A stretch of DNA of 64,000 nt from an uncultured Candidatus Saccharibacteria bacterium (GTDB taxonomy: Bacteria; Patescibacteriota; Minisyncoccia; Phycocordibacterales; UBA9973), in the NCBI GenBank assembly GCA_964412965.1, contig CAYPQU010000003.1, positions 2,788 through 66,787 on the forward strand, written 5' to 3'. This document shows positions 9,659 through 44,534 of this stretch, piece by piece. Numbering within the stretch: position 1 is the stretch's first letter; every line of letters begins with the position of its first letter. Made by a program: the position numbers and the translations under genes. The notes beneath the pieces are model-generated. The model was not told where the DNA came from, searched no databases, and saw nothing but the letters and a program-made list of their open reading frames with translations.

Positions 9659-9789
9659 ATTATAACCCTTAAACGGGGTTTTTACAAAATATTACAATAA
9701 ATGTTTAGGATGTTTTTGAATACGACATTCTTCTTGTGTCCAAAAGTGGTATAATATAAATACACAATATAAACAAACCAAGTTCTCTA

Positions 9790-9899
9790 GTCATCAAAAA
9801 CAATCTTCTTTTAGAGACTAGCGAGTGCGGCGGCACGAGCTCGAGGAATTTTTCAGCAGAAAAATATCCGTGCTCTAAAAGAAGATTATTTTTGATGAC
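9790..9899. repeat. MITE-like element: ~26-bp terminal inverted repeats flanking a GC-rich core that is also found twice in the ileS leader
   Basis: Left TIR gtcatcaaaaacaatcttcttttagag and right TIR ctctaaaagaagattatttttgatgac. Core gcgagtgcggcggcacgagctcgaggaatttttcagcagaaaaatatccgtgc matches 43166-43230 and 43316-43385. Confidence 0.55.
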
Positions 9900-10865: not shown

Positions 10866-13085
10866 ATGACTAAGAAGTTACTTATTGTAGAGTCACCTTC
10901 AAAAGCTAAGACGATAGAAAAATACCTAGACGGAGAATACACAGTTCGAGCTTCTGTTGGACACATCAGAGATTTGCCAAAATCAAACAAAAACGCCATT
11001 AATATAGAAAATGGTTTTGTTCCTAATTATGAAATTTCAAAGGGTAAAGAAAAAGTGGTTTACGAACTAAAAACTCTTGCCGAAAAAGCCGACGAGGTGA
11101 TGCTTGCAACAGACCCTGACCGAGAAGGAGAAGCTATTTCTTGGCACCTAAAAGACATTTTAGATACTGATAAAAAAATTAAAGCTCCAATCAAAAGAGT
11201 AGCCTTTCATGAAATTACAAAAGAAGCTATTATAGAAGCTTTACAAAACCCTCGTGATATTGACTTAAATCTAGTTAAAGCACAGGAAGCAAGACGCGTT
11301 CTCGACAGATTAGTTGGATATGATTTGTCTGGGATAATTTGGAAAAAAGTTAGATATGGTTTGTCCGCGGGAAGAGTTCAATCCCCTGCCCTCCGAATCA
11401 TCATGGAAAGAGAAAGGGAAATTAGAGCTTTTATCCCTGAAAAGTATTGGACAATTGAAGGAATTTTTAATCTAAATAAAAATAAAATTAAACTAACCTG
11501 TACAGAGGAACCTCGAGACGAAAAAATCGTAAAAGAAATCTTATCTCTAGGTCAAAAAGAAAAATGGATTATTACTGACATCAAATCCTCTGAACAAAAG
11601 AGACAGCCTAGACCTCCATTTACCACATCCACTTTGCAACAAACCGCAAGCACTAGACTCGGATTCTCTCCTTCTAGAACAATGCAAATTGCACAAAGAT
11701 TGTACGAAGCTGGTCTTATTACCTACATGCGTACCGACAGTACCAATCTAAGCACACAAGCACAAAATCAAATCATTTCGCTCGTTGAAAAAAAATATGG
11801 AAAAGAATATGCCGAAAAGCATTTCTATAAAGCTAAATCTAAAAATGCCCAGGAAGCTCACGAAGCTATCAGACCTACTCACATTGATAACATGTCAGTC
11901 GGAGCTACCGAAGAACAGAAGAAGCTCTATAGACTTATCTGGGAAAGAGCAGTCTCTTCTCAAATGACAGATGCTAAACTTTTAAAATCAAAAATCGTAG
12001 CCAATATAGAACATGGCCAAATACCTGACTTTACAGCTAATGGATCAAAGATTTTATTCCCCGGATGGCTTGCTTGCGACAGTGACGCAAGCGGTGATGA
12101 TATCATACTTCCTGAAGTAAAAAAGGGGCAGGCAATTGACCTTATTGAAATCAGCGAAAATGAAAAATCTACCGAACCACCAAATAGATACACCGAGGCT
12201 GGACTAGTCAAAGAACTAGAATCTAGAGACATAGGAAGACCTTCGACTTACGCGAGTATCATCAAAACACTAGAAGATAGAGGTTATGTAAGAAAAGAAG
12301 GACGCACTCTTTTCCCTACTGATACCGGAGATGTCGTTTCAAGTTTTCTAGAAAATAATTTCTATAACTATATTAGCGACAATTTTACCGCAGACATGGA
12401 AGACAAGTTAGACGATATCTCCAACGGCAAAAGAGATTACGTGAAAACTTTAAAAGATTTTTATGGACCGTTCTTAAGTGACATCAAAGAGAAAGAGAAA
12501 TTAGCAAAAGCTACTAACATAGAAGACGCACCCGAGAATATTAAATGCCCAAAATGTGGCGGTGACATGACTGTGAAGCTTGCCAGAAACGGCAAATTCT
12601 ATTCATGTAAAAATTATCCTGATTGCAGCGGTGCTCTCACCCTAGACGGCAAAGAACTCGAGGGTCCAAAAGAAACCGGAGAAATGTGTCCAACTTGTGG
12701 AGATAAAAAGGGTAAAAACGGTGGAGGAAAACTAGTTGTCAGAGAAGGTAGGTTTGGTTCGTTTATCTCGTGTTCTCGTTACCCTAAATGTAAATTTATT
12801 AAACAAGATGAAGAAGAATTAAAAAAGAAAATGACTGAAATTACCTGCCCTGTTTGCAATAATGGAAAAATGATGGAGAGACGAGGAAGATTCGGAATTT
12901 TTTATTCATGTAGTAATTATCCTGATTGTAAAAATGCAATTAAAGCAAAACCAACTGGTAATATCTGCCCCTTCTGTGACGCCCTGATGATGAATGGCAC
13001 AAAAACTATTCCCGAAAGATGTAGTAATAACAAGTGTCCAAATCATCGACCAGATAAGCTTGAAAAAGAAAAAAGAAGTTCTTAA
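10866..13085 (+). CDS. topA: DNA topoisomerase I with C-terminal zinc-ribbon repeats
   Basis: MTKKLLIVESPSKAKTIEKYL Toprim start and four CxxC...CxxC zinc ribbons at the C-terminus. The ORF opens at 10830, but 10866 is the likelier start. Confidence 0.95.
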   Translation: MTKKLLIVESPSKAKTIEKYLDGEYTVRASVGHIRDLPKSNKNAINIENGFVPNYEISKGKEKVVYELKTLAEKADEVMLATDPDREGEAISWHLKDILDTDKKIKAPIKRVAFHEITKEAIIEALQNPRDIDLNLVKAQEARRVLDRLVGYDLSGIIWKKVRYGLSAGRVQSPALRIIMEREREIRAFIPEKYWTIEGIFNLNKNKIKLTCTEEPRDEKIVKEILSLGQKEKWIITDIKSSEQKRQPRPPFTTSTLQQTASTRLGFSPSRTMQIAQRLYEAGLITYMRTDSTNLSTQAQNQIISLVEKKYGKEYAEKHFYKAKSKNAQEAHEAIRPTHIDNMSVGATEEQKKLYRLIWERAVSSQMTDAKLLKSKIVANIEHGQIPDFTANGSKILFPGWLACDSDASGDDIILPEVKKGQAIDLIEISENEKSTEPPNRYTEAGLVKELESRDIGRPSTYASIIKTLEDRGYVRKEGRTLFPTDTGDVVSSFLENNFYNYISDNFTADMEDKLDDISNGKRDYVKTLKDFYGPFLSDIKEKEKLAKATNIEDAPENIKCPKCGGDMTVKLARNGKFYSCKNYPDCSGALTLDGKELEGPKETGEMCPTCGDKKGKNGGGKLVVREGRFGSFISCSRYPKCKFIKQDEEELKKKMTEITCPVCNNGKMMERRGRFGIFYSCSNYPDCKNAIKAKPTGNICPFCDALMMNGTKTIPERCSNNKCPNHRPDKLEKEKRSS

Positions 13086-13102
13086 ACTTCTTTAAGAACT
13101 TA

Positions 13103-13196
13103 AGTTTTTGTGAGGCGCAGTGATGTTTGCCGAGCACGGCAAACCACGAGCCGGGGTCGCAAAAATTTCGAGCGACGGCGAGAAATTATTTGTGAC
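13103..13196. repeat. GC-rich ~94-nt insert (E1) flanked by ~102-bp direct duplications of the topA 3' end and terminator (13000-13102 and 13197-13298)
   Basis: The two flanks are identical apart from one mismatch. The insert (cggggtcgc...gcgacggcg...ttgtgacc) resembles the insert at 23645-23732. Confidence 0.6.
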
Positions 13197-13352
13197 CAAA
13201 AACTATTCCCGAAAGATGTAGTAATAACAAGTGTCCAAATCATCGACCAGATAAGCTTAAAAAAGAAAAAAGAAGTTCTTAAACTTCTTTAAGAACTTGA
13301 TAAAAAAAACTCCTAATTTAATACAGAACTTTAGAATAAAATAATAAAGTTT

Positions 13353-14825
13353 TTGAAATACATGATTCCCAAAATGGAAGATCTTTTGTCTATAATAAAA
13401 ATAGAATCAAAAGAAGATGAAAATCTCATAAGAAAATCTTACAATTTAGCTGAAAAAGCTCACGCTGGGCAAAAAAGAAAAAGCGGAGAGCCATACCTAA
13501 CTCACCCAGCTAATGTGGCAAAAATTCTCGCAGAACTCGGTTTGCCTCCGTTGGTGATAGCCACCGGGCTTGTTCACGATGTGCTGGAAGAAACTAAATA
13601 TACAAAAGAAAATATCTCAGAAATGCTAGGAAAAGAAATTGCAGACTTGTCGGAAAAAGTAGTGAGGTTGGGAAATATAAAATACAGAGGAACAGAAAAA
13701 AATATTGAAAACCTAAGAAAATTCTTTATTTATGAAACCGGCGATTTAAGAGCGCTAATTGTTAGACTAGCTGATAGATTACACAACGTTGAAACACTAG
13801 AATATATAGATAAAAACAAACAAAAAAGGATAGCTTTGGAAACACTTGAAATATATGCTAATTTAGCAAACCGACTATCTATGGGTCAATTGAAAAGTCG
13901 ATTAGAGGATGCTTCTTTTAAGTATGCATATCCAGAAGAATATCAAAAGATAAAAGACTCCCTTGATAAAAAGAAAGACGTTGGCAGAGAGCATTTGATC
14001 GAAACCAAATCTAAACTAGAACAGATGATTCGAGAAGCTAAAATAAAGAATTTTACAATAGATTCTCGTCAAAAACATTTATATTCTTTGTGGAACAAAT
14101 TAAATAAATACGACCTTACCATTAATAACATCTATGACATCATTGCAATTAGAGTAATCGTGGAAACAGTAGAAGATTGTTATAAGGTCCTGGGATTAAT
14201 ACACGGACAGTGGAGGCCAATGATGAACAGGATCAGGGATTATATCGCTTCTCCCAAATCAAATGGATATCAAAGTATTCACACAATTATATACACCAAT
14301 TCGGGAGGAATAGTCGAAATACAAATAAGAACAAAGGATATGCATGTCAGAGCCGAAAACGGGATAGCAGCTCATTTCGCCTACAAAGAGAAGGGTGGGG
14401 CTGAAAAATCTTTATTGAAAAATGCGGAGTGGTCTCACCAACTTCATGAACTTAATTTATCAAAAAATTACAGAGAAAATTTTAGTCAAAAAATCGAACT
14501 TGATTTTTTTAAAGATAGAATTTTTATCTTCACTCCAAAAGGAGATATTGTTGATCTTCCAAAAGATTCTTGTGTTATAGATTTTGCATATGCGATCCAC
14601 ACTAGCGTCGGAGATCATGCTCTGAGCGGTGTTGTTAATGGTAAAAACTCGTCTTTAAATACTATATTAAAAACGAACGATATTGTAGAAATTAAAACCA
14701 ACAAGAACGGTAGACCTTCCCGTAAATGGCTAGAGTTTGCTAAAACAAATCTAGCTAAAAAACATATTAATAGCTACTTAAAAGAAAACAGTCTTTTAAA
14801 CAAATATGCTTCTTTTGGTAAATAA
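13353..14825 (+). CDS. rel: Short (p)ppGpp synthetase/hydrolase, RelA/SpoT homolog (HD, synthetase and TGS domains)
   Basis: HD motif region (LVHDVLEET) and RelA/SpoT synthetase core. Confidence 0.85.
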   Translation: MKYMIPKMEDLLSIIKIESKEDENLIRKSYNLAEKAHAGQKRKSGEPYLTHPANVAKILAELGLPPLVIATGLVHDVLEETKYTKENISEMLGKEIADLSEKVVRLGNIKYRGTEKNIENLRKFFIYETGDLRALIVRLADRLHNVETLEYIDKNKQKRIALETLEIYANLANRLSMGQLKSRLEDASFKYAYPEEYQKIKDSLDKKKDVGREHLIETKSKLEQMIREAKIKNFTIDSRQKHLYSLWNKLNKYDLTINNIYDIIAIRVIVETVEDCYKVLGLIHGQWRPMMNRIRDYIASPKSNGYQSIHTIIYTNSGGIVEIQIRTKDMHVRAENGIAAHFAYKEKGGAEKSLLKNAEWSHQLHELNLSKNYRENFSQKIELDFFKDRIFIFTPKGDIVDLPKDSCVIDFAYAIHTSVGDHALSGVVNGKNSSLNTILKTNDIVEIKTNKNGRPSRKWLEFAKTNLAKKHINSYLKENSLLNKYASFGK

Positions 14826-16073: not shown

Positions 16074-16156
16074 GCGTCGGTGGCAGAGTGGTCAATTGCA
16101 TTTGACTGTAAATCAAACGCCTTCGGGCTACGGGGGTTCGAATCCCTCCCGGCGCA
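16074..16156 (+). tRNA. tRNA-Tyr (anticodon GTA), class II long variable arm
   Basis: Acceptor GCGTCGG/CCGGCGC, anticodon loop ctGTAaa, variable hairpin gccttcgggc, T-loop ggttcgaatcc. Confidence 0.8.
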
Positions 16157-16198
16157 CTATATTAAAAAACAAGGACAGTATCCTTGTTTTTTAATATT
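16157..16198. terminator. Bidirectional terminator between tRNA-Tyr and clpB
   Basis: aaaaaacaagga cagtat ccttgtttttt. Confidence 0.55.
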
Positions 16199-23437: not shown

Positions 23438-23496
23438 CAGTGGAAAAATTAAAATTTTTCTGCTAGTATAATAAAGTGGATTTACAAAACAATATG

Positions 23497-23578
23497 CCCA
23501 GGTGGCGGAATTGGTATACGCGCTAGTCTTAGGAACTAGTGGAGCAATCCTTGGAGGTTCAAGTCCTCTCCTGGGCAC
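23497..23578 (+). tRNA. tRNA-Leu (anticodon TAG), long variable arm
   Basis: Acceptor gcccagg/cctgggc, anticodon loop ctTAGga, T-loop ggttcaagtcc. Confidence 0.8.
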
Positions 23579-23644
23579 ACGTAATGTGCAAAAAAGAAGC
23601 AATGTTATTGCTTCTTTTTTAAGGAGAGGACTTGAAAGACGGAC

Positions 23645-23732
23645 TCCGACGAAGGCCGGAGGAGTCGGGGTCGCGAGTTTTGCCAGCAGACAAAAACTTG
23701 TGACCAAGTCCTTTTGGTCGAAAACGAGAAGC
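23645..23732. repeat. GC-rich ~88-nt insert (E2) flanked by 76-bp direct duplications of the tRNA-Leu 3' end and terminator (23569-23644 and 23733-23808)
   Basis: The duplicated flank includes ctcctgggcacacg and the hairpin gaagcaatgttattgcttc followed by T-run. The insert shares cggggtcgc...ttgtgacca with E1. Confidence 0.6.
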
Positions 23733-23894
23733 TCCTGGGCACACGAAGTGTTCAAAAATGAAGCAATGTTATTGCTTCTTTTTTAAGGAGAGGACTTGAA
23801 AGACGGATCTTCGATCCTTAACGAAATTAATCGAACGAGAAGCTGAATGATTATATCTTATTGCTTATTCTATCAAAATATAGTATACTTTCCC

Positions 23895-31362: not shown

Positions 31363-32139
31363 TTACCGCACACAACGAACATAAAAATTGTATGCACTCT
31401 TGGAATTGTAGGTTATTACTCCCGTATCAAAGAAAGAACGCCAGGCAGAAGAAGTATCGTCGACATTCTCTGTAGAAGTCCAGTATCTAGATGAGGTAAA
31501 ACCAACAGGAGTGTGTGAAATATTTCCAGATGCTTCATAATAGGCTTTCATAGGAGTTAGAAGCATTCCCACAGAAGGTAATCGTCCACCAGAAATAGTA
31601 CACGCACTCATAGCGTAAGACCAATTCATCGAAACATCACCACTCTCAGATGTAACTCCCAATGATGTCACTCCTTTTTTGTCCCATTCCACCACTCCAT
31701 TTTGATCTACTGACCACGCCTTAAGCATAGTATCATCATAGATAATGGCTGTAGCAGCAAATAAAGAAGCTGCGGACGAGCATTTTACTATTATATTTTG
31801 ATCAATTAGTTGTTGTGCAATTTTGCCCAAACTATTATCAATCCCAGCACAAGTAGTATTATACACGGAAGGATTTGATCCTGAATAACTTCCTAAACTT
31901 ATGAAATTAATTTCAGCCTGATTGTATAGTTGTTTTAATGTTGACTTGATTAAGGCAATCTTGCTCTTTTCTCTTGCAGAGTTTAGTGATGTGATGACAA
32001 CAGAGGAGAGTATTCCGATGATTGCAATTACTACTAGTAGTTCAATGAGGGTGAACCCCGACACCCAGTTTTCTCTATCTTTAAAACTAAGTGCGGAGGT
32101 GAAATCTTTATTGTTTGATTTTAAGAAAAGTTTTTTCAC
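31363..32139 (-). CDS. Type IV pilin-like protein (prepilin N-terminus) with a C-terminal DUF1566-like domain ending YVRCVR
   Basis: GFTLIELLVVIAIIGIL prepilin methylation motif and helix. The C-terminus (YWTST...AW...YVRCVR) is characteristic of DUF1566. Confidence 0.7.
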   Translation of the reverse strand: MKKLFLKSNNKDFTSALSFKDRENWVSGFTLIELLVVIAIIGILSSVVITSLNSAREKSKIALIKSTLKQLYNQAEINFISLGSYSGSNPSVYNTTCAGIDNSLGKIAQQLIDQNIIVKCSSAASLFAATAIIYDDTMLKAWSVDQNGVVEWDKKGVTSLGVTSESGDVSMNWSYAMSACTISGGRLPSVGMLLTPMKAYYEASGNISHTPVGFTSSRYWTSTENVDDTSSAWRSFFDTGVITYNSKSAYNFYVRCVR

Positions 32140-39563: not shown

Positions 39564-42500
39564 TTATTTTACCACCTTAATTACAAAAGTTAAATCTGCA
39601 ATTTTTACTTCTGTCCCTTCGTTGTCTTTATATTCTATCGCCTTAGCAGATACTAATTTTTGAATATTTTCCTTAAACTTTTCTATCAAACCCTGCCCTT
39701 CTTCGTTAGTTTTAATCAAGAGCGTAATTAGATCGTTTGGATTTAAATCGTTTTTCTTTCTTATGTCTTGAATAGCTCTAACCAACTCTCTGTAATTTCC
39801 TTCTTTCTTTAAATCTTCGGTTATGTTTATATCCAAGATAACTTCGAGCTCTTGCCCTTCTTCAAATTTAACATTTTTAATGTTCAACTCATCTTTTAGA
39901 ATAGAGACATACTCTTCTTTTAAGTTATATTTTTTAACAGTTATTTCTTGCAGAGGTTGTCTTACGGGGATTGAGGCCTTTTGTCTATTTTGTAATCCCA
40001 AAGTTACGATCTCTCGTAGCTCCTTCATGTCTTCAATAACCTTATCATCGTAAGCGAATCCTTCTGGCCACTCTCCGAGGTGGACGCTCATGGAATCATT
40101 TTCTAATTTTAATTTTTGCCAAATATCTTCAGCGGAAAAAGGAGCAAATGGCGCCATTAATTTTGCCATTGTTTTAAATACAAAATAAATAGTTTGTTTG
40201 GCTTCTATGTCTCCCTCTTTTATTCTGTCTCTTGAGCGACGTAAATACCAAGTAGATAAATCGTCAATAAAGCCTCTCATCGCTCTCGCAGGTTCTAGTA
40301 ATTTATAATTTTCTAAGTTTTCTGTTGATACTTTTATCAATTCTCCCAGTCTAGATAATATCCAAATATCTAAGACGTTTTTACTGTTTGGTTTATCACT
40401 TGTTACTATTTTTGTATCTCTATACAACTCATAAAAAGCAAAAACATTGTAAAACAAATTGAAGAACTTGTTATTCAATTCTGCAACTGTTTTTTCATCA
40501 AAGTTTTTTGGTTCCCCAGGTTGGTTTATTGAATACATCCAGAGTCTTAAAGTATCAACTCCATATTTATCTGACATTTCCCAAGGATCAACTCCGTTGC
40601 CGAGAGATTTAGACATCTTCTTTCCATTGGCGTCGAGAACCAACCCGAGACAAATCACATTTTTAAATGCTTTTCCTTTACCCATGATTGTTCCTACTGC
40701 ATGTAACGTATAGAACCACCCTCTTGTTTGGTCTATCCCCTCACTGATGAAGTCTGCAGGATAAGCAATATCTGTAGTACTAAAAGGATAATGGCTTTGA
40801 GCAAAAGGCATTGACCCGGAATCCAGCCAGACGTCCATAACTTCTTTTGCTCTTTCTAATTTTCCACCACAATCGCAAACAACATCCACTTCATCAATAT
40901 ATGGTCTGTGCAAGTCTAGTTCATAATTTTCATCATGAGGAATTGGTTTAAAATCAAGCTCTCTAATTTCTGAATTAACAAGACAAGAGAAATCTTTTAG
41001 CATGGAGAGCGTTTGCCTTGCTCCATATCCGTTTATTCCCGCAAGCATCAACCAAGCTGGTCCCCCATGTGTTACGATTAAAATATTTTTACCTTGATAT
41101 TTATTTTCTAGGCCGTACAAGAAGTCCATTGATCTTTTTCTAAGCTCATTCCAAGTCTCACTTCCTTCTTCTGTTTTATAGAAGTTCTCTTCTGTGTTTG
41201 GATAATCATTGTGATAATCTTGCCAAGTTTTACCTTCATATTTAGAGACCTTGTATTCAGTTAGACTTTCATCAATTAAAATATTTTTTTCGTCATATCC
41301 CAATATTTTCGCTACTTCTATGGCAGTTTCTCTTGCTCTTGTTACAGGTGAAGAAATAATTAAATCTATTTTTTCATTTTTTAATTTTTCTGCATTATTT
41401 CTTGTCTCATTGACACCCTTTTCCGTTAGATGACTAACTCGATATTCATCAGAAGTATTTATTTTTCCGTCTAAATTATTTTCAGATTCACCATGACGCA
41501 TTACAAAATATTTATTACCAGAAGTTTTTGCTTTGGATTTTATATCTTCAACTCCACCTAGGACTTCTATTTTGCCACAAGTATCACATTTCCAGACAGG
41601 AAGCGGAGTCCCCCAATATCTTTCTCGAGAGATTGCCCAATCTTTAATATCTTTTAGCCACTCTCCAAAACGCCCTTCTTTAATATATGAAGGCTCCCAA
41701 TTTATATTTTCATTTTCTTTAACCATCTTGTCTTTAAGCGCAGACATTCTGATATACCAAGAATCTCGCGCATAATATATAAGAGCTGTTTTACATCTCC
41801 AGCAATGAGGGTAAGTGTGTTCGTACTTTTCTTTCTTATGCAAAAGTCCTTTTCCTGCCAAATCTTTTATTATATCGACAGCCACATCTTCGTCTCGAAC
41901 AAATCTATCTTTTAGAAAATCAGTTCCTTCCAGGAATTTTCCATCAAGCCCAACAAGATGACATTTAGGTAATCCTACTTTATTGCCAAGCTCAAAGTCG
42001 TCTTGACCATACATGGGAGCAATATGCACCACCCCTGTTCCGTCTTCTGTAGTCACAAAATCCGCTCCATATATTTTATAAGCATTTTCCATTTTTTCAG
42101 CTTCTTCTTTCGATGCTATTGCTTTTGTATACGGATATAGTGGTTCATATGAAAGACCAATTAAATCTTTCCCTTTTAATTCTTCTACAATATTATATTC
42201 TCCTTCCAAAACAGAAAGTCGTGATTTCGCAAGAATTAAAAATTCTCCATTTTGTTCTACGCGAACATAATCAATATCTTCTCCAACTGCCAAGGCGACA
42301 TTTGAAGGAAGAGTCCAAGGAGTTGTCGTCCAAACTAATATGTGAATTTCTTCGCCTGTATGCTTATGCGAATGGTCTGGCTCCGGCTCTTGTCCCCCTC
42401 GTCCGAGGACCTGAGCAGAAGCATCAGGCGAAGAAACCTGGAAACTCGAAGCTCCTGTTAATTTAAATTTCACGTACACGGTTATATCTTTCACATCCTG

Positions 42501-43091
42501 ATATCCTTGAGCCAGTTCATGCGAAGAGAGCCCAGTTCCACATCTAGGACACCAGGGTACTATTTTATAGTCTTTATAAAGTAAATTTTGCTTATGTGCT
42601 TCTTTGATGACATTCCATACTGATTCGATGTAAGTATTATGATACGTAACATACGGATTTTCCTGATCAACCCAAAAGCCTATCCTGTCTGTGAATTTAT
42701 GCCATAAATCTGTATAGTTCCAAACATTGTGCTTGCATTCTTTATTAAATTTATCTATTCCATATTCTTCAATATCTTTTTTTGATTGCAAGTTTAACTT
42801 TTTCTCTACTTCAATTTCAACAGGAAGACCATGAGTATCCCAACCACCCTTTCTCGTGACGTGATAACCATTCATTGTCTTATAACGCAAAACCGCATCC
42901 TTAAAAGCTCTCGCCGCTAGATGGTGAATTCCAGGCTTGCCATTCGCCGTCGGAGGGCCTTCGAAGAAAACATACTCTCCCTTCGGAGAATTCTTCTCTA
43001 AACTTTTTTCAAAAATTTTATTGTCCTGCCAAAACTCTAAAACTTTTTCTTCTCTCAGTGCATTATTTGATTTTGTTTTTTCTTCGTTCAT
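39564..43091 (-). CDS. ileS: Isoleucyl-tRNA synthetase carrying an internal ~180-aa histidine-phosphatase-like insertion
   Basis: HIGH region PPTANGKPGIHHLA, WTTTPWTLPSN, KMSKSLGNG. The insert carries FVMRHGESENN...SSPVTRARETA...THGG between split Cys pairs CDTCG and CDCGG. Confidence 0.95.
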   Translation of the reverse strand: MNEEKTKSNNALREEKVLEFWQDNKIFEKSLEKNSPKGEYVFFEGPPTANGKPGIHHLAARAFKDAVLRYKTMNGYHVTRKGGWDTHGLPVEIEVEKKLNLQSKKDIEEYGIDKFNKECKHNVWNYTDLWHKFTDRIGFWVDQENPYVTYHNTYIESVWNVIKEAHKQNLLYKDYKIVPWCPRCGTGLSSHELAQGYQDVKDITVYVKFKLTGASSFQVSSPDASAQVLGRGGQEPEPDHSHKHTGEEIHILVWTTTPWTLPSNVALAVGEDIDYVRVEQNGEFLILAKSRLSVLEGEYNIVEELKGKDLIGLSYEPLYPYTKAIASKEEAEKMENAYKIYGADFVTTEDGTGVVHIAPMYGQDDFELGNKVGLPKCHLVGLDGKFLEGTDFLKDRFVRDEDVAVDIIKDLAGKGLLHKKEKYEHTYPHCWRCKTALIYYARDSWYIRMSALKDKMVKENENINWEPSYIKEGRFGEWLKDIKDWAISRERYWGTPLPVWKCDTCGKIEVLGGVEDIKSKAKTSGNKYFVMRHGESENNLDGKINTSDEYRVSHLTEKGVNETRNNAEKLKNEKIDLIISSPVTRARETAIEVAKILGYDEKNILIDESLTEYKVSKYEGKTWQDYHNDYPNTEENFYKTEEGSETWNELRKRSMDFLYGLENKYQGKNILIVTHGGPAWLMLAGINGYGARQTLSMLKDFSCLVNSEIRELDFKPIPHDENYELDLHRPYIDEVDVVCDCGGKLERAKEVMDVWLDSGSMPFAQSHYPFSTTDIAYPADFISEGIDQTRGWFYTLHAVGTIMGKGKAFKNVICLGLVLDANGKKMSKSLGNGVDPWEMSDKYGVDTLRLWMYSINQPGEPKNFDEKTVAELNNKFFNLFYNVFAFYELYRDTKIVTSDKPNSKNVLDIWILSRLGELIKVSTENLENYKLLEPARAMRGFIDDLSTWYLRRSRDRIKEGDIEAKQTIYFVFKTMAKLMAPFAPFSAEDIWQKLKLENDSMSVHLGEWPEGFAYDDKVIEDMKELREIVTLGLQNRQKASIPVRQPLQEITVKKYNLKEEYVSILKDELNIKNVKFEEGQELEVILDINITEDLKKEGNYRELVRAIQDIRKKNDLNPNDLITLLIKTNEEGQGLIEKFKENIQKLVSAKAIEYKDNEGTEVKIADLTFVIKVVK

Positions 43092-43399
43092 ATGTTTTCT
43101 ATTTAACTAATAATTTTAATAATTATCCAAGAAAATAAAAATAAGTCTTTGAGAAATACCTTGCGCAGAGCGACGGCTCGAGCAGAGAAATTTTTCAACA
43201 GAAAAATATTCGTGCATTTCGAGAAGAGCTTATTTTTGCTTTCTCTTAAGAAAAAAACTCGTTATTTAATAATTATCCCAAGAAAGCAAGAATAAGTCTT
43301 TGAGAAATGACTAGGGAGCGCGACGGCGCGAGCTCGAGGAATTTTTCAGCAGAAAAATATCCGTGCATTTCGAGAAGAGCTTATTTTTGCTTTCCCTTA

Positions 43400-43600
43400 A
43401 CAAAAAACTCGTCCTTGTATAACAATCGACTGATTGCTACATAAGGACGAGTTTCTCTCCTCGTGGTACCACCTTAATTCCCCTAAAAGGGCTTATTTTA
43501 CAGCTTTTACGGGCTTACCCGCTAAGTTCTAATCTCCTTTTGTGGATTTCTTCTTAGTGCTCCGAGGTGATGTCCTCTTCAACGCTTCTATATATATATT
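43400..43600 (-). promoter_or_regulatory. T-box riboswitch leader (Ile specifier) upstream of ileS
   Basis: In the sense strand: a stem I region containing ggacATCacc (ATC = Ile codon), the T-box sequence aattaaggtggtaccacgagg, and the terminator ctcgtcctt...aaggacgag followed by tttttt. Confidence 0.7.
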
Positions 43601-43745: not shown

Positions 43746-44534
43746 CTACCTAACACAGCGAACATAGAACCCGCTAGTCTGACTGTGGTTGTACAAGTTA
43801 CCATTGTTCATGCTCTGGTAGTAAGCGAGCGTAGTAGGCGAAGACGGAACAGGGATAGAAGACCAGTAAACGCTCGCTACGAAACCAAGAGGAGTGTAAG
43901 GTGTAGCGGTTGCTCCAGCACCTGCATAAGATGCCCAATATAGGGTTCTCAATTGTTCAATAGAAGGAAGGCGTCCGCCGTTTGTAGTACAAGCAGTTTT
44001 TGCTGTAGACCAGTTCATAGTATTGCTACCCAAAACATCATCACCTGGGAGTGAAGCTCCGGCTGATGTTACACTCCTTGTATCCCACTTAACTACTCCG
44101 TTTTCATCTACTGACCATGCTTTGAGTTCACCAGTGTCATAGATGAGGGCTGTGGCTCCGAAACGAAAGTTGTTGTCACCTAAATAAACACCACTGGTAC
44201 CTAGATAGCTAAAGCATTTAACTATAATTCCTTGGTCAATAAGAGGTTGAGCTATTTTAGCTAGATTACCTCCTGGGCCTGTACAGGTTAAATCTGAATA
44301 TGATGTATTAGAGTTTGCAAAACTACCATATTCTGCTTGATTGATGGCAGCTTGGTTGTATAGTTGTTTTAAGGAGGATTTAATAGAAGCAATCTTGCTC
44401 TTTTCTCTTGCAGAGTTTAGTGAAGTGATGACAACTGATGAGAGTATTCCGATGATTGCAATTACTACCAATAGTTCTATCAATGTAAACCCTTTGGTAA
44501 ATTTTGATGATTTAAAAATAGATTTTTTACTCAT
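43746..44534 (-). CDS. Type IV pilin-like protein with a C-terminal DUF1566-like domain (paralog of 31363-32139)
   Basis: Identical prepilin N-terminus (GFTLIELLVVIAIIGILSSVVITSLNSAREKSKIA). The C-terminus ends GFYVRCVR, and its 3' region is GC-rich. Confidence 0.7.
   Translation of the reverse strand: MSKKSIFKSSKFTKGFTLIELLVVIAIIGILSSVVITSLNSAREKSKIASIKSSLKQLYNQAAINQAEYGSFANSNTSYSDLTCTGPGGNLAKIAQPLIDQGIIVKCFSYLGTSGVYLGDNNFRFGATALIYDTGELKAWSVDENGVVKWDTRSVTSAGASLPGDDVLGSNTMNWSTAKTACTTNGGRLPSIEQLRTLYWASYAGAGATATPYTPLGFVASVYWSSIPVPSSPTTLAYYQSMNNGNLYNHSQTSGFYVRCVR

Follow-up and report, generated by a model that had tools for sequence, protein, structure and literature searches.

How a gene comes to stand beside a second copy of its own last part, with a GC-rich insert in between, is the question raised by two loci in the stretch of 64,000 nucleotides analysed here (contig CAYPQU010000003.1, called the window throughout), which belongs to an AT-rich genome of the Patescibacteria (Paceibacteria) whose best ClpB relatives are 82% identical. 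At the end of topA, positions 13000-13101 recur at 13197-13298 (102 nt, 99% identity, one mismatch), and at the end of a tRNA-Leu gene positions 23568-23643 recur at 23732-23807 (76 nt, 95% identity, four mismatches), so that the direct repeats reported in a first-pass annotation of this DNA are found where it had placed them. Between the copies of both pairs there is a GC-rich related element with a three-way-junction fold, and the segment said to be common to the two inserts is borne out as well, since the window has exactly two occurrences of the motif GGGGTCGC..N..TGTGACC and none of 100 shuffles has any. The inserts had also been drawn as lying cleanly between the repeats, and of this picture the repeats stand and the clean separation does not: the element overlaps the repeats at both loci, its closing helix at topA drawing on positions 13197-13204 of repeat copy 2, and the tRNA-Leu repeat including the 5' part of the element, namely a segment that complements the gene end (the anti segment, 23622-23636) and the GAAAGACGGA junction. 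What the earlier reading overlooked is this reach of the element into the repeats, the closing helix, the complementary segment itself, and a large structured family, tied to tRNA and tmRNA genes, to which both inserts belong.

Both duplications are real. Collapsed or chimeric repeats might be feared in a metagenome-type assembly, the more so as the repeats exceed short-read k-mers, but the copies differ by one and four substitutions and the architecture of two copies plus an element is seen again in many unrelated, independent assemblies. Furthermore, an independent Logan contig with an identical RelA starts within the topA repeat, 30 nt before the unique downstream 'gataaaaa', and a break exactly there is what de Bruijn assembly is expected to give at a genuine repeat. 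An assembly artefact is barely credible as the source of these duplications.

A family of folded elements at gene ends

The inserts are members of a widespread and undescribed family of folded elements of about 100 nt in Patescibacteria, and the family fits no class considered. Its consensus consists of a closing helix P1, a G-NRA junction, a helix P2 whose base is GSC/GSC and whose internal loop, RSA/GA, is conserved, two purines that separate P2 from P3, and a helix P3 with the near-invariant base GGUCGCGAG/CUYGUGACC, which contains G.U pairs; P3 runs into the 3' strand of P1 with no unpaired base intervening. On its 5' side P1 uses a portion of the longer anti segment, which complements the gene at the left border of the duplication, a site called X here. 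Pairing is found in 92.3% of cells, as against 75.6% in shuffles (0/500) and 34-38% with the partners slid, and no P1 or P2 pair is without compensatory change. Because the search pattern prescribed the base of P3, its invariance in that set is no evidence. At two P3 positions G.U is the favoured pair, an indication that it is the sense strand that folds.

Copies were sought with a simple pattern and then with covariance models, the first of these (R1) made from trimmed cores and the second from 119 real copies. In the window R1 gave only the two reported copies at E<1e-14, and it gave 25 copies in 80 Paceibacteria genome loci; covariance searching of 100 listed metagenome loci gave at least 119. 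Since the metagenome loci came from a pattern scan (at least 119 copies, at least 100 loci), the total of about 146 copies among the matches listed, Patescibacteria genomes and metagenomes together, is a lower bound. A scan of viral contigs with a 17-base pattern returned almost only chance matches in GC-rich phages, with one real copy in L085 (the loci compared carry L numbers here). In all copies with enough flank the distance from X to its downstream counterpart X2 is 100-250 nt, and no open reading frame (ORF) is found inside the element in these.

The possibility raised at the outset, that the inserts are pieces of a known structured RNA, finds no match in Rfam 15: in the window only tRNAs pass gathering and nothing credible lies over the inserts at E<=10, and at 15 further loci only the adjacent tRNA and transfer-messenger RNA (tmRNA) match. 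Compared by eye, none of hammerhead, twister, hepatitis delta virus-like, group II 5' or domain V, signal recognition particle RNA, tmRNA, attC or the dif consensus fitted. A kink-turn reading of P2, also checked by eye, has GA on the 3' strand before the C-stem as expected, and the 5' RSA (GCA, GGA, ACA) fits only for GGA. Literature searches found no description of such elements.

Copies are concentrated downstream of structural RNA genes, 102 of the 146 listed having a same-strand tRNA or tmRNA gene upstream at a distance of no more than 450 nt (median 56), with about 30 tRNA species represented; 16 are at contig edges and 28 elsewhere. Within tRNAs there are two sharp classes of position, T-loop nt 54/56 and the tRNA 3' end. 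The complement of anti begins at nt 54, the first T-loop base, in 40 listed copies and within 2 nt of it in ten more, about 25 have it beginning within the final 3-5 nt of the tRNA, and the gene-end copy that follows P3 begins at nt 56 in 29. Two contigs have the element after tmRNA (L201, L271). As to protein genes, topA has the element at the same G-T-K-T-I-P-E codons in five more independent contigs (L229, L268, L270, L286, L304), each anti segment fitting its own genome's synonymous variant, ftsZ has it 11 codons before its end in two (L242, L307), and rplL has it at its end in one (L246). The paired strands differ between all loci, copying the local gene, and the flanking gene-end copies vary in length from 7 to 102 nt. 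As a general rule the gene concerned is highly conserved, the element sits in its terminal part, and two copies of that part surround it, of which one keeps the gene whole. The first-pass annotation had suggested checking whether further copies are flanked by duplicated gene ends, and copies of this kind are found in other genomes at tRNA, tmRNA, topA, ftsZ and rplL genes.

A second arrangement, called the 5' type, is seen at L249, L257, L302 and L244 (metagenome). There a partial copy of the tRNA 5' part (to about nt 10-17) plus leader comes first; an additional hairpin and the core follow, then a stretch that complements the 5' part of the tRNA, and after a spacer the intact tRNA. The direct repeats are 12-18 nt long, starting a few nucleotides upstream of tRNA +1. 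At L282 (about 90-560, + strand) the 5' part of a tRNA-Ser is perfectly duplicated over 65 nt; the upstream copy has a degenerate T-arm and is followed by the element, and the intact tRNA-Ser lies downstream.

At the window's topA gene (10866-13085; Pfam Topoisom_bac, Toprim and Zn_ribbon_Top1) the parts of the element can be followed in turn, all of them on the + strand. X is CACAAAAACT, in the G-T-K-T-I codons at 12998-13007, and forms the left border of the duplication. Repeat copy 1 (13000-13101) takes in the last 28 codons, that is the TopA tail KTIPERCSNNKCPNHRPDKLEKEKRSS*, together with the hairpin H0, AAGTTCTTAAA-CTTC-TTTAAGAACTT, at 13076-13101 (second copy at 13273-13298). This hairpin had been taken for a terminator, a description that has to be given up: no T-run follows copy 2, it is not called as a terminator, and it is a CTTC-loop hairpin spanning the stop codon. 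Equivalent CUKC-loop hairpins precede the anti segment at the five other topA loci. The anti segment AGTTTTTGTG (13103-13112) complements 12998-13007 and gives the 5' strand of P1. The core extends from 13103 to 13204, with P1 made by AGUUUUU (13103-13109) and AAAAACU (13198-13204), P2 at 13114-13152 and P3 at 13155-13197, and scores 50.8 bits with the first covariance model and 69.4 bits with the second (fold z -4.5). Repeat copy 2 (13197-13298) begins at the last base of P3 and comprises H0 and a displaced TopA tail, which is in frame and departs from that of copy 1 by a single E-to-K change; relA is the next gene. Folds of the entire topA unit, RNA and DNA alike, pair anti with the upstream X and also form H0, P2 and P3.

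The tRNA-Leu(tag) gene (23496-23578) is situated with a tRNA-Cys between rbfA and secG, and here too the features are on the + strand. X is tRNA nt 54-68 (23558-23572), covering the T-loop, the 3' strand of the T-stem and the start of the acceptor, and is a 15/15 complement of anti. Repeat copy 1 (23568-23643) contains the tRNA 3' end, the trailer, an intrinsic terminator (23590-23620), anti (23622-23636) and the start of the core. The core itself (23627-23712) has P1 formed by AGGACUU (23627-23633) and AAGUCCU (23706-23712), P2 at 23640-23666 and P3 at 23669-23705, and scores 52.2 and 68.2 bits with the first and second models (fold z -2.5). A small hairpin lies 3' of the core (23711-23731), and repeat copy 2 (23732-23807) then brings a second tRNA 3' end, a terminator (23754-23784) and a second anti (23786-23800). 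The sequence after this had been noted as a third, partial repeat, and a repeat it is, the 11 nt of AACGAGAAGCT being present twice; it is also, on alignment to 23644-23734, best interpreted as the end of a degenerate second unit (23808-23844, terminal CGAACGAGAAGCT) from which the core has been deleted.

Some features of the tRNA surroundings may be recorded here. The tRNA genes, in the window (23496-23578, 16074-16157) and at related loci, have no encoded CCA, and the discriminator is regularly followed by CA(A/C). Hairpins after tRNAs very often have a CUGC (or CUUC) tetraloop (for example L035 3430-3400, L018 2822-2857, L033 6166-6132, L062 15202-15168), and their stems are perfect palindromes, up to 24 bp, that extend into the last tRNA bases; among the elements themselves GCGAAGC and GACG are further recurrent loops. 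In close relatives other GC-rich structured inserts lie downstream of tRNA-Leu(tag), at about 5640-5520 (-) in L004 and about 100-1 (-) in L009. Following tRNA-Cys in L009 (about 360-220, -) there is the same layout of anti-acceptor, ACUGC-loop hairpin, anti-T and gene-end copy with another core, and so the layout may be common to more than one core family.

Gene-end copies, arrays and empty sites

The displaced tails of protein genes (t2, and t3 in arrays) are intact and in frame in nine of ten cases, with the patterns KTIPERC..C..H.PHK... for TopA and VPAFLRRSKLK for FtsZ. Nucleotide identity between displaced and upstream tail is 60-73%, synonymous divergence (dS) is saturated and nonsynonymous divergence (dN) is 0.04-0.29. 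Being intact and differing mostly at synonymous sites, the tails seem to have diverged as working genes in separate lineages, and not to be copies decaying after a duplication. In 103 of 127 copies (with an anti window that included part of H0) the anti segment is closer to the upstream than to the downstream gene-end copy. P1 is formed with the following gene-end copy. Arrays of the form t1-E1-t2-E2-t3 are present in L268, L270 and L286, and in those of L268 and L286 each anti is cognate to the preceding tail. The fit of anti to the upstream tail and the cognate arrays lead us to take as the unit the gene end from X, then the hairpin, then anti, then P2-P3. The tRNA-Leu locus is a misfit in this respect, the repeat border being inside the element and the second unit having no core.

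Arrays are also found in L085/L234 (IMG/VR UViG_3300033463_005745 = Ga0310690_10002005), where at least three units with 60-nt repeats lie on a 34.7-kb contig classed as viral, adjoining a degenerate tRNA-Ser-like 3' end that is uncalled by ARAGORN.

Relatives of the window's genome have the empty sites that the first-pass annotation had suggested looking for, and have them at both places. The topA-relA spacer is 60-90 nt and without an element in seven close relatives (L001, L002, L004, L008, L010, L011, L019), in L011 and L076 tRNA-Leu is followed by a short plain spacer and then secG, and in L002 a tRNA-Leu identical to that of the window is without the element. The tail of the window's TopA has a different history from the rest of the protein. 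Over the 80 residues before X the protein is 88% identical to those of L002, L010 and L019, whose tails are of the type SNKMCK[NM]HNPHK.G..IK, whereas the window tail SNNKCPNHRPDKLEKEKRSS is nearest to that of L077 (85%, with only 67% identity upstream) and to the first tail of L270. L077 has the same tail type natively and has no element. The window tail, unlike those of its own clade and like those of L077 and L270, therefore has its origin elsewhere.

A proposed mobile cassette and its rivals

Roughly even credence may be given to the reading that the repeats are att-like, one gene end being carried by a mobile cassette and the other displaced by it, and less than that to any particular chemistry for its movement. 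The proposal of att-like integration at gene 3' ends that accompanied the first description of the repeats is therefore supported in part, being in keeping with the empty sites, the fixed positions, the arrays and the foreign TopA tail, and its companion remark, that such long duplications are not typical of transposition of the insertion sequence (IS) or miniature inverted-repeat transposable element (MITE) kind, agrees with P1 arms that are locus-specific and duplications of variable length. Template switching or a retro-type insertion, which it named as alternatives, might also be involved.

On the mobile-cassette reading a unit consisting of the gene end from X to H0 or terminator, anti and P2-P3 would insert just 5' of the resident X, and the resident gene end would be shoved downstream to lie directly after P3. 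The gene would stay intact because the unit's own gene end is now used, and repeated insertion could yield tandem arrays. Pairing of anti with X may draw the unit's two ends together at the junction, the 3' end of P3 stacking on the 5' end of X, and a trans-acting enzyme or the fold itself might then exchange strands at the P3/P1 junction while the single strand is folded, the same anti segment possibly checking the target through base pairing. Single-strand exchange at this junction is favoured because the anti:X helix aligns the ends, because anti can test the target and because the arrays, together with the expression of the first position, mirror integron cassettes. An RNA strand would be suited by the G.U pairs and the GA loop, and single-stranded DNA by the upstream terminator or hairpin, by the absence of a reverse transcriptase (RT) in the window and at the 120 loci whose neighbourhoods were surveyed, and by DNA folds that are equally good.

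As to an enzyme, clustering of the ORFs within 3 kb of these 120 loci gave no recurrent protein family (maximum 7 of 120). Pfam searches of essentially all proteins of the 64-kb window found housekeeping genes only and no recombinase, integrase, transposase or RT domain, and neither the window nor the surroundings of the 120 loci contain a Y1 HUH transposase (TnpA/RAYT). The lack of a recurrent neighbour and the housekeeping-only window suggest that the element is non-autonomous, moved by the host, or self-catalytic. A bolder version of the proposal, a programmable mobile element free of protein genes, in which an antisense guide sets the insertion point, a replacement gene end is carried along and movement relies on the element's own RNA catalysis, by a new class of ribozyme active at the P3/P1 junction, or on an unrecognised host enzyme that acts on the folded single strand, is tentative, and we would lean against it at present.

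Several observations weigh against a simple mobile cassette. Both tails in the window are of the foreign type, are nearly identical and have H0, so a single insertion of a cassette does not suffice and a second insertion, a target-duplicating insertion or gene conversion is needed. The adjoining relA (13362-14825) is 42-70% identical to those of the L001-L019 relatives, which are mutually 73-86% identical, while the flanking topA up to X and parB are 82-94% identical to the relatives, and this suggests that a block of about 1.8 kb from X through relA may have been imported whole, with a left edge that coincides with the element. P3 is identical in L229 and L268 and yet the tails, H0, anti and P2 differ, an indication that modules are exchanged between elements. 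The 5' type, a mirror image of the usual arrangement set in tRNA D-loops, has a different junction geometry, which weakens the case for one fixed catalytic junction. Abundant transcription is hard to square with a terminator upstream of the core, while the G.U pairs would suit RNA. Finally no excision product, circular junction or nucleotide-level strain polymorphism was seen, and mobility would thus appear from comparison alone.

The imported-looking block favours a part for homologous recombination in the spread of the elements, and the question is whether this could be all there is. Recombination with no transposition chemistry would use the downstream gene end as right arm and the gene body as left, through RecA and DprA after DNA uptake by naturally competent Patescibacteria, with the core a neutral or mildly useful RNA. 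The discordance of the X-to-relA block with both of its flanks, the presence of dprA beside topA and of recO in the window, the want of a linked enzyme gene and the mosaic make-up of the elements all agree with this, and unequal recombination could build arrays. However, tails at one locus that are 60-73% identical are too diverged for RecA crossovers, and the conserved junction, the perfect complementarity of anti and X (10-24 nt), the two sharp tRNA positions and the colonisation of about 30 tRNA species, tmRNA and three protein genes are left unaccounted for, which makes recombination on its own unlikely. Quite unlikely too is an origin at the RNA level, by which a new self-cleaving and ligating or trans-splicing ribozyme with anti as internal guide would join the 3' end of P3 to a transcript, the chimeric or circular RNA then being copied by RT and fixed by recombination. 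RT copying would let duplications begin at the paired site and stop where the transcript stops, and it is the case that the topA duplication in the window stops at the base of the hairpin and that 5'-type duplications begin a few nucleotides upstream of tRNA +1; the conserved G.U pairs, the GA-type internal loop, the zero-nucleotide junction from P3 to the paired strand and a topology that is that of a type I hammerhead may also be cited in its favour. Yet no ribozyme or intron model matches, the hammerhead core sequence is missing, a terminator separates gene and core, RT is found neither in the window nor beside the 120 loci, the tRNA-Leu repeat has its border inside the element and not at a transcript end, and folding as DNA gives the same structure.

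A resident, vertically inherited cis-acting RNA of tRNA operons, with a role in 3' processing, termination, stability or as a tRNA-like decoy and with duplications due to replication slippage between the short repeats on its two sides, would explain the strong tie to tRNA trailers, always on the sense strand, and the syntenic position rbfA-tRNA-secG across distant genera; anti could sequester or mimic the acceptor/T helix of the tRNA, and X/X2 slippage would give tandem units. The distribution is patchy, though, the closest relatives having empty sites, the element is also present in the coding ends of topA, ftsZ and rplL with intact spare tails, the window tail is foreign, and slippage predicts an order A-I-A-I where topA has A-I-A, so that we consider a resident RNA decidedly improbable. 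T-loop, 3'-end and tmRNA sites are reportedly the classic targets of tyrosine integrases, and the match of the sublocations to these, with one array on a contig classed as viral, brings to mind remnants of integrase islands or prophages in which the attL- and attR-proximal ends were joined after deletion of the interior. None of the approximately 146 listed copies has a long interior or an integrase, however, hundreds of deletions would have had to arrive at identical end points, and covarying stems and a target-complementary anti are not features of att arms; there is very little to be said for remnants of this kind.

Other candidates were tried and rejected. Snap-back (fold-back) synthesis is at odds with a copy 2 that is direct and not a reverse complement and, in protein genes, with an anti that complements the start of the tail, far from the hairpin, and not the sequence adjacent to it. 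Simple tandem duplication by slippage fails at topA for the order already given. A diversity-generating retroelement would need an RT, which the window does not have; the differences between the tRNA-Leu repeats (T/A, A/G, G/T, A/T) have no adenine pattern and those in protein tails affect synonymous sites of every type. Obligatory splicing of an intron is not compatible with a first tail that has its own stop and hairpin, nor with tRNA X2 copies that are often defective. For a MITE the P1 arms are too locus-specific and gene-derived, and there is no short target duplication of fixed length.

Known systems and minor relatives

The mobile-cassette reading has its closest parallel, in logic, in integron attC sites. 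There too cargo is followed by a folded recombination site defined more by single-strand structure than by sequence, R'' (here anti) pairs with the opening bases of whatever follows, be it target or another unit (R', here X2), or, in the circular form, with the unit's own start, and new units enter at a fixed partner and push older ones downstream into arrays in which only the first cargo is expressed. In contrast to integrons the element has neither an IntI integrase (in the window or at the 120 loci) nor RYYYAAC/GTTRRRY boxes, its paired box is target-specific and 7-24 nt long, a three-way junction takes the place of one bulged hairpin, and its 'attI' is an essential gene end and its cargo a replacement gene end. 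With the integrase islands of tRNA and tmRNA genes it shares insertion in the T-loop or 3' end of tRNA or tmRNA or in the 3' end of a protein gene, a replacement 3' end, a direct repeat comparable to attL/attR and tandem accretion; it differs in its total of 160-250 nt with no integrase or ORF, as against kilobases with an integrase, and in having a covarying fold, an antisense segment and repeats of 7-102 nt. IS200/IS605, palindrome-associated transposable elements (PATEs) and repetitive extragenic palindromes with their mosaics (REP/BIME) likewise have hairpin ends read single-stranded, with cleavage site or target set by a short internal guide beside the hairpin, and are small, GC-rich and extragenic with copies that have no transposase. 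The IS200/IS605 family, however, makes no target duplication, inserts 3' of a fixed 4-5-nt motif, needs TnpA or RAYT and carries no gene-end cargo, whereas the element's targets vary by gene. The likenesses to integrons and to IS200/IS605 would accordingly be of logic, not of membership.

GC-rich mobile hairpins of mitochondria, with a mobility that was inferred from comparison, appear in PMC3787672 (citing Paquin et al. 2000). Yeast GC clusters and the double-hairpin elements of Allomyces resemble the present family as short GC-rich two-hairpin elements of an AT-rich reduced genome; they differ in hosts and sequences and in having no target-complementary segment, and C-terminus replacement there goes by way of homing endonuclease genes. 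Mitochondrial mobile ORFs that supply a gene with a replacement C-terminus are a further parallel: in Allomyces atp6 an inserted element brought a foreign C-terminal copy and left the native one downstream. Group I internal guide sequences, group II exon-binding sites and the IS110 bridge RNA are alike in that an internal segment pairs with a flank of the insertion point and so sets specificity. The element differs from these guide RNAs in matching no intron model, in the absence of an adjacent recombinase of IS110 type, in being far smaller and in carrying, besides the guide, a copy of the target.

If the mobile-cassette reading is right, a widespread parasite or tool would enter the most conserved genes harmlessly by bringing a spare gene end, and would recognise its target by a short complementary segment, not by protein-encoded specificity, a new type among nucleic-acid-guided insertion systems. 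The Patescibacteria would then have a guide-directed insertion system aimed at tRNA, tmRNA, topA, ftsZ and rplL, an explanation would be at hand for spare gene tails and the odd partial copies of tRNAs, both liable to mislead annotation and binning, and a small defined RNA or DNA fold (P3 with its G.U pairs) would become a candidate for catalysis or for interaction with a partner enzyme. Even on modest readings this is a large structured element family that is absent from Rfam.

Two paralogous pilin-like proteins are encoded in the window at 31363-32139 and 43746-44534 (-), each with an N-terminal methylation motif and an Lcl_C domain, and with dprA, recO and ssb they fit a lifestyle of competence and DNA uptake.

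Weak 'mini' relatives of the element are also found in the window on the + strand. One lies in the dprA 5' leader (9809-9880, 17.9 bits, E 0.0017), where P2 has a GGCG loop and P3 is GGAAUUUUUCAGCAGAAAAAUAUCC; a 27-bp near-perfect inverted repeat surrounds it (9783-9809 and 9873-9899, GTCATCAAAAACAATCTTCTTTTAGAG / CTCTAAAAGAAGATTATTTTTGATGAC), a TATAAT box is located upstream at 9741-9746, and the whole (9783-9899) may be a regulatory part of the leader or else a copy that has decayed. Two more, at 43153-43220 and 43303-43372 (14.1 and 12.9 bits), occur one per unit of a tandem repeat of about 150 nt (43110-43410) upstream of an IleRS-like gene and on the strand opposite to it. This is what the first-pass annotation called the aminoacyl-tRNA synthetase (aaRS) leader element, and the gcgacggcg motif it saw in common with the inserts is indeed shared, GCGACGGCG being a GACG-loop hairpin that is found in the weak relatives. 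The gene itself (39564-43091, -) encodes a class I aaRS of 1175 aa with a His_Phos_1 insert at residues 529-694, between the catalytic halves.

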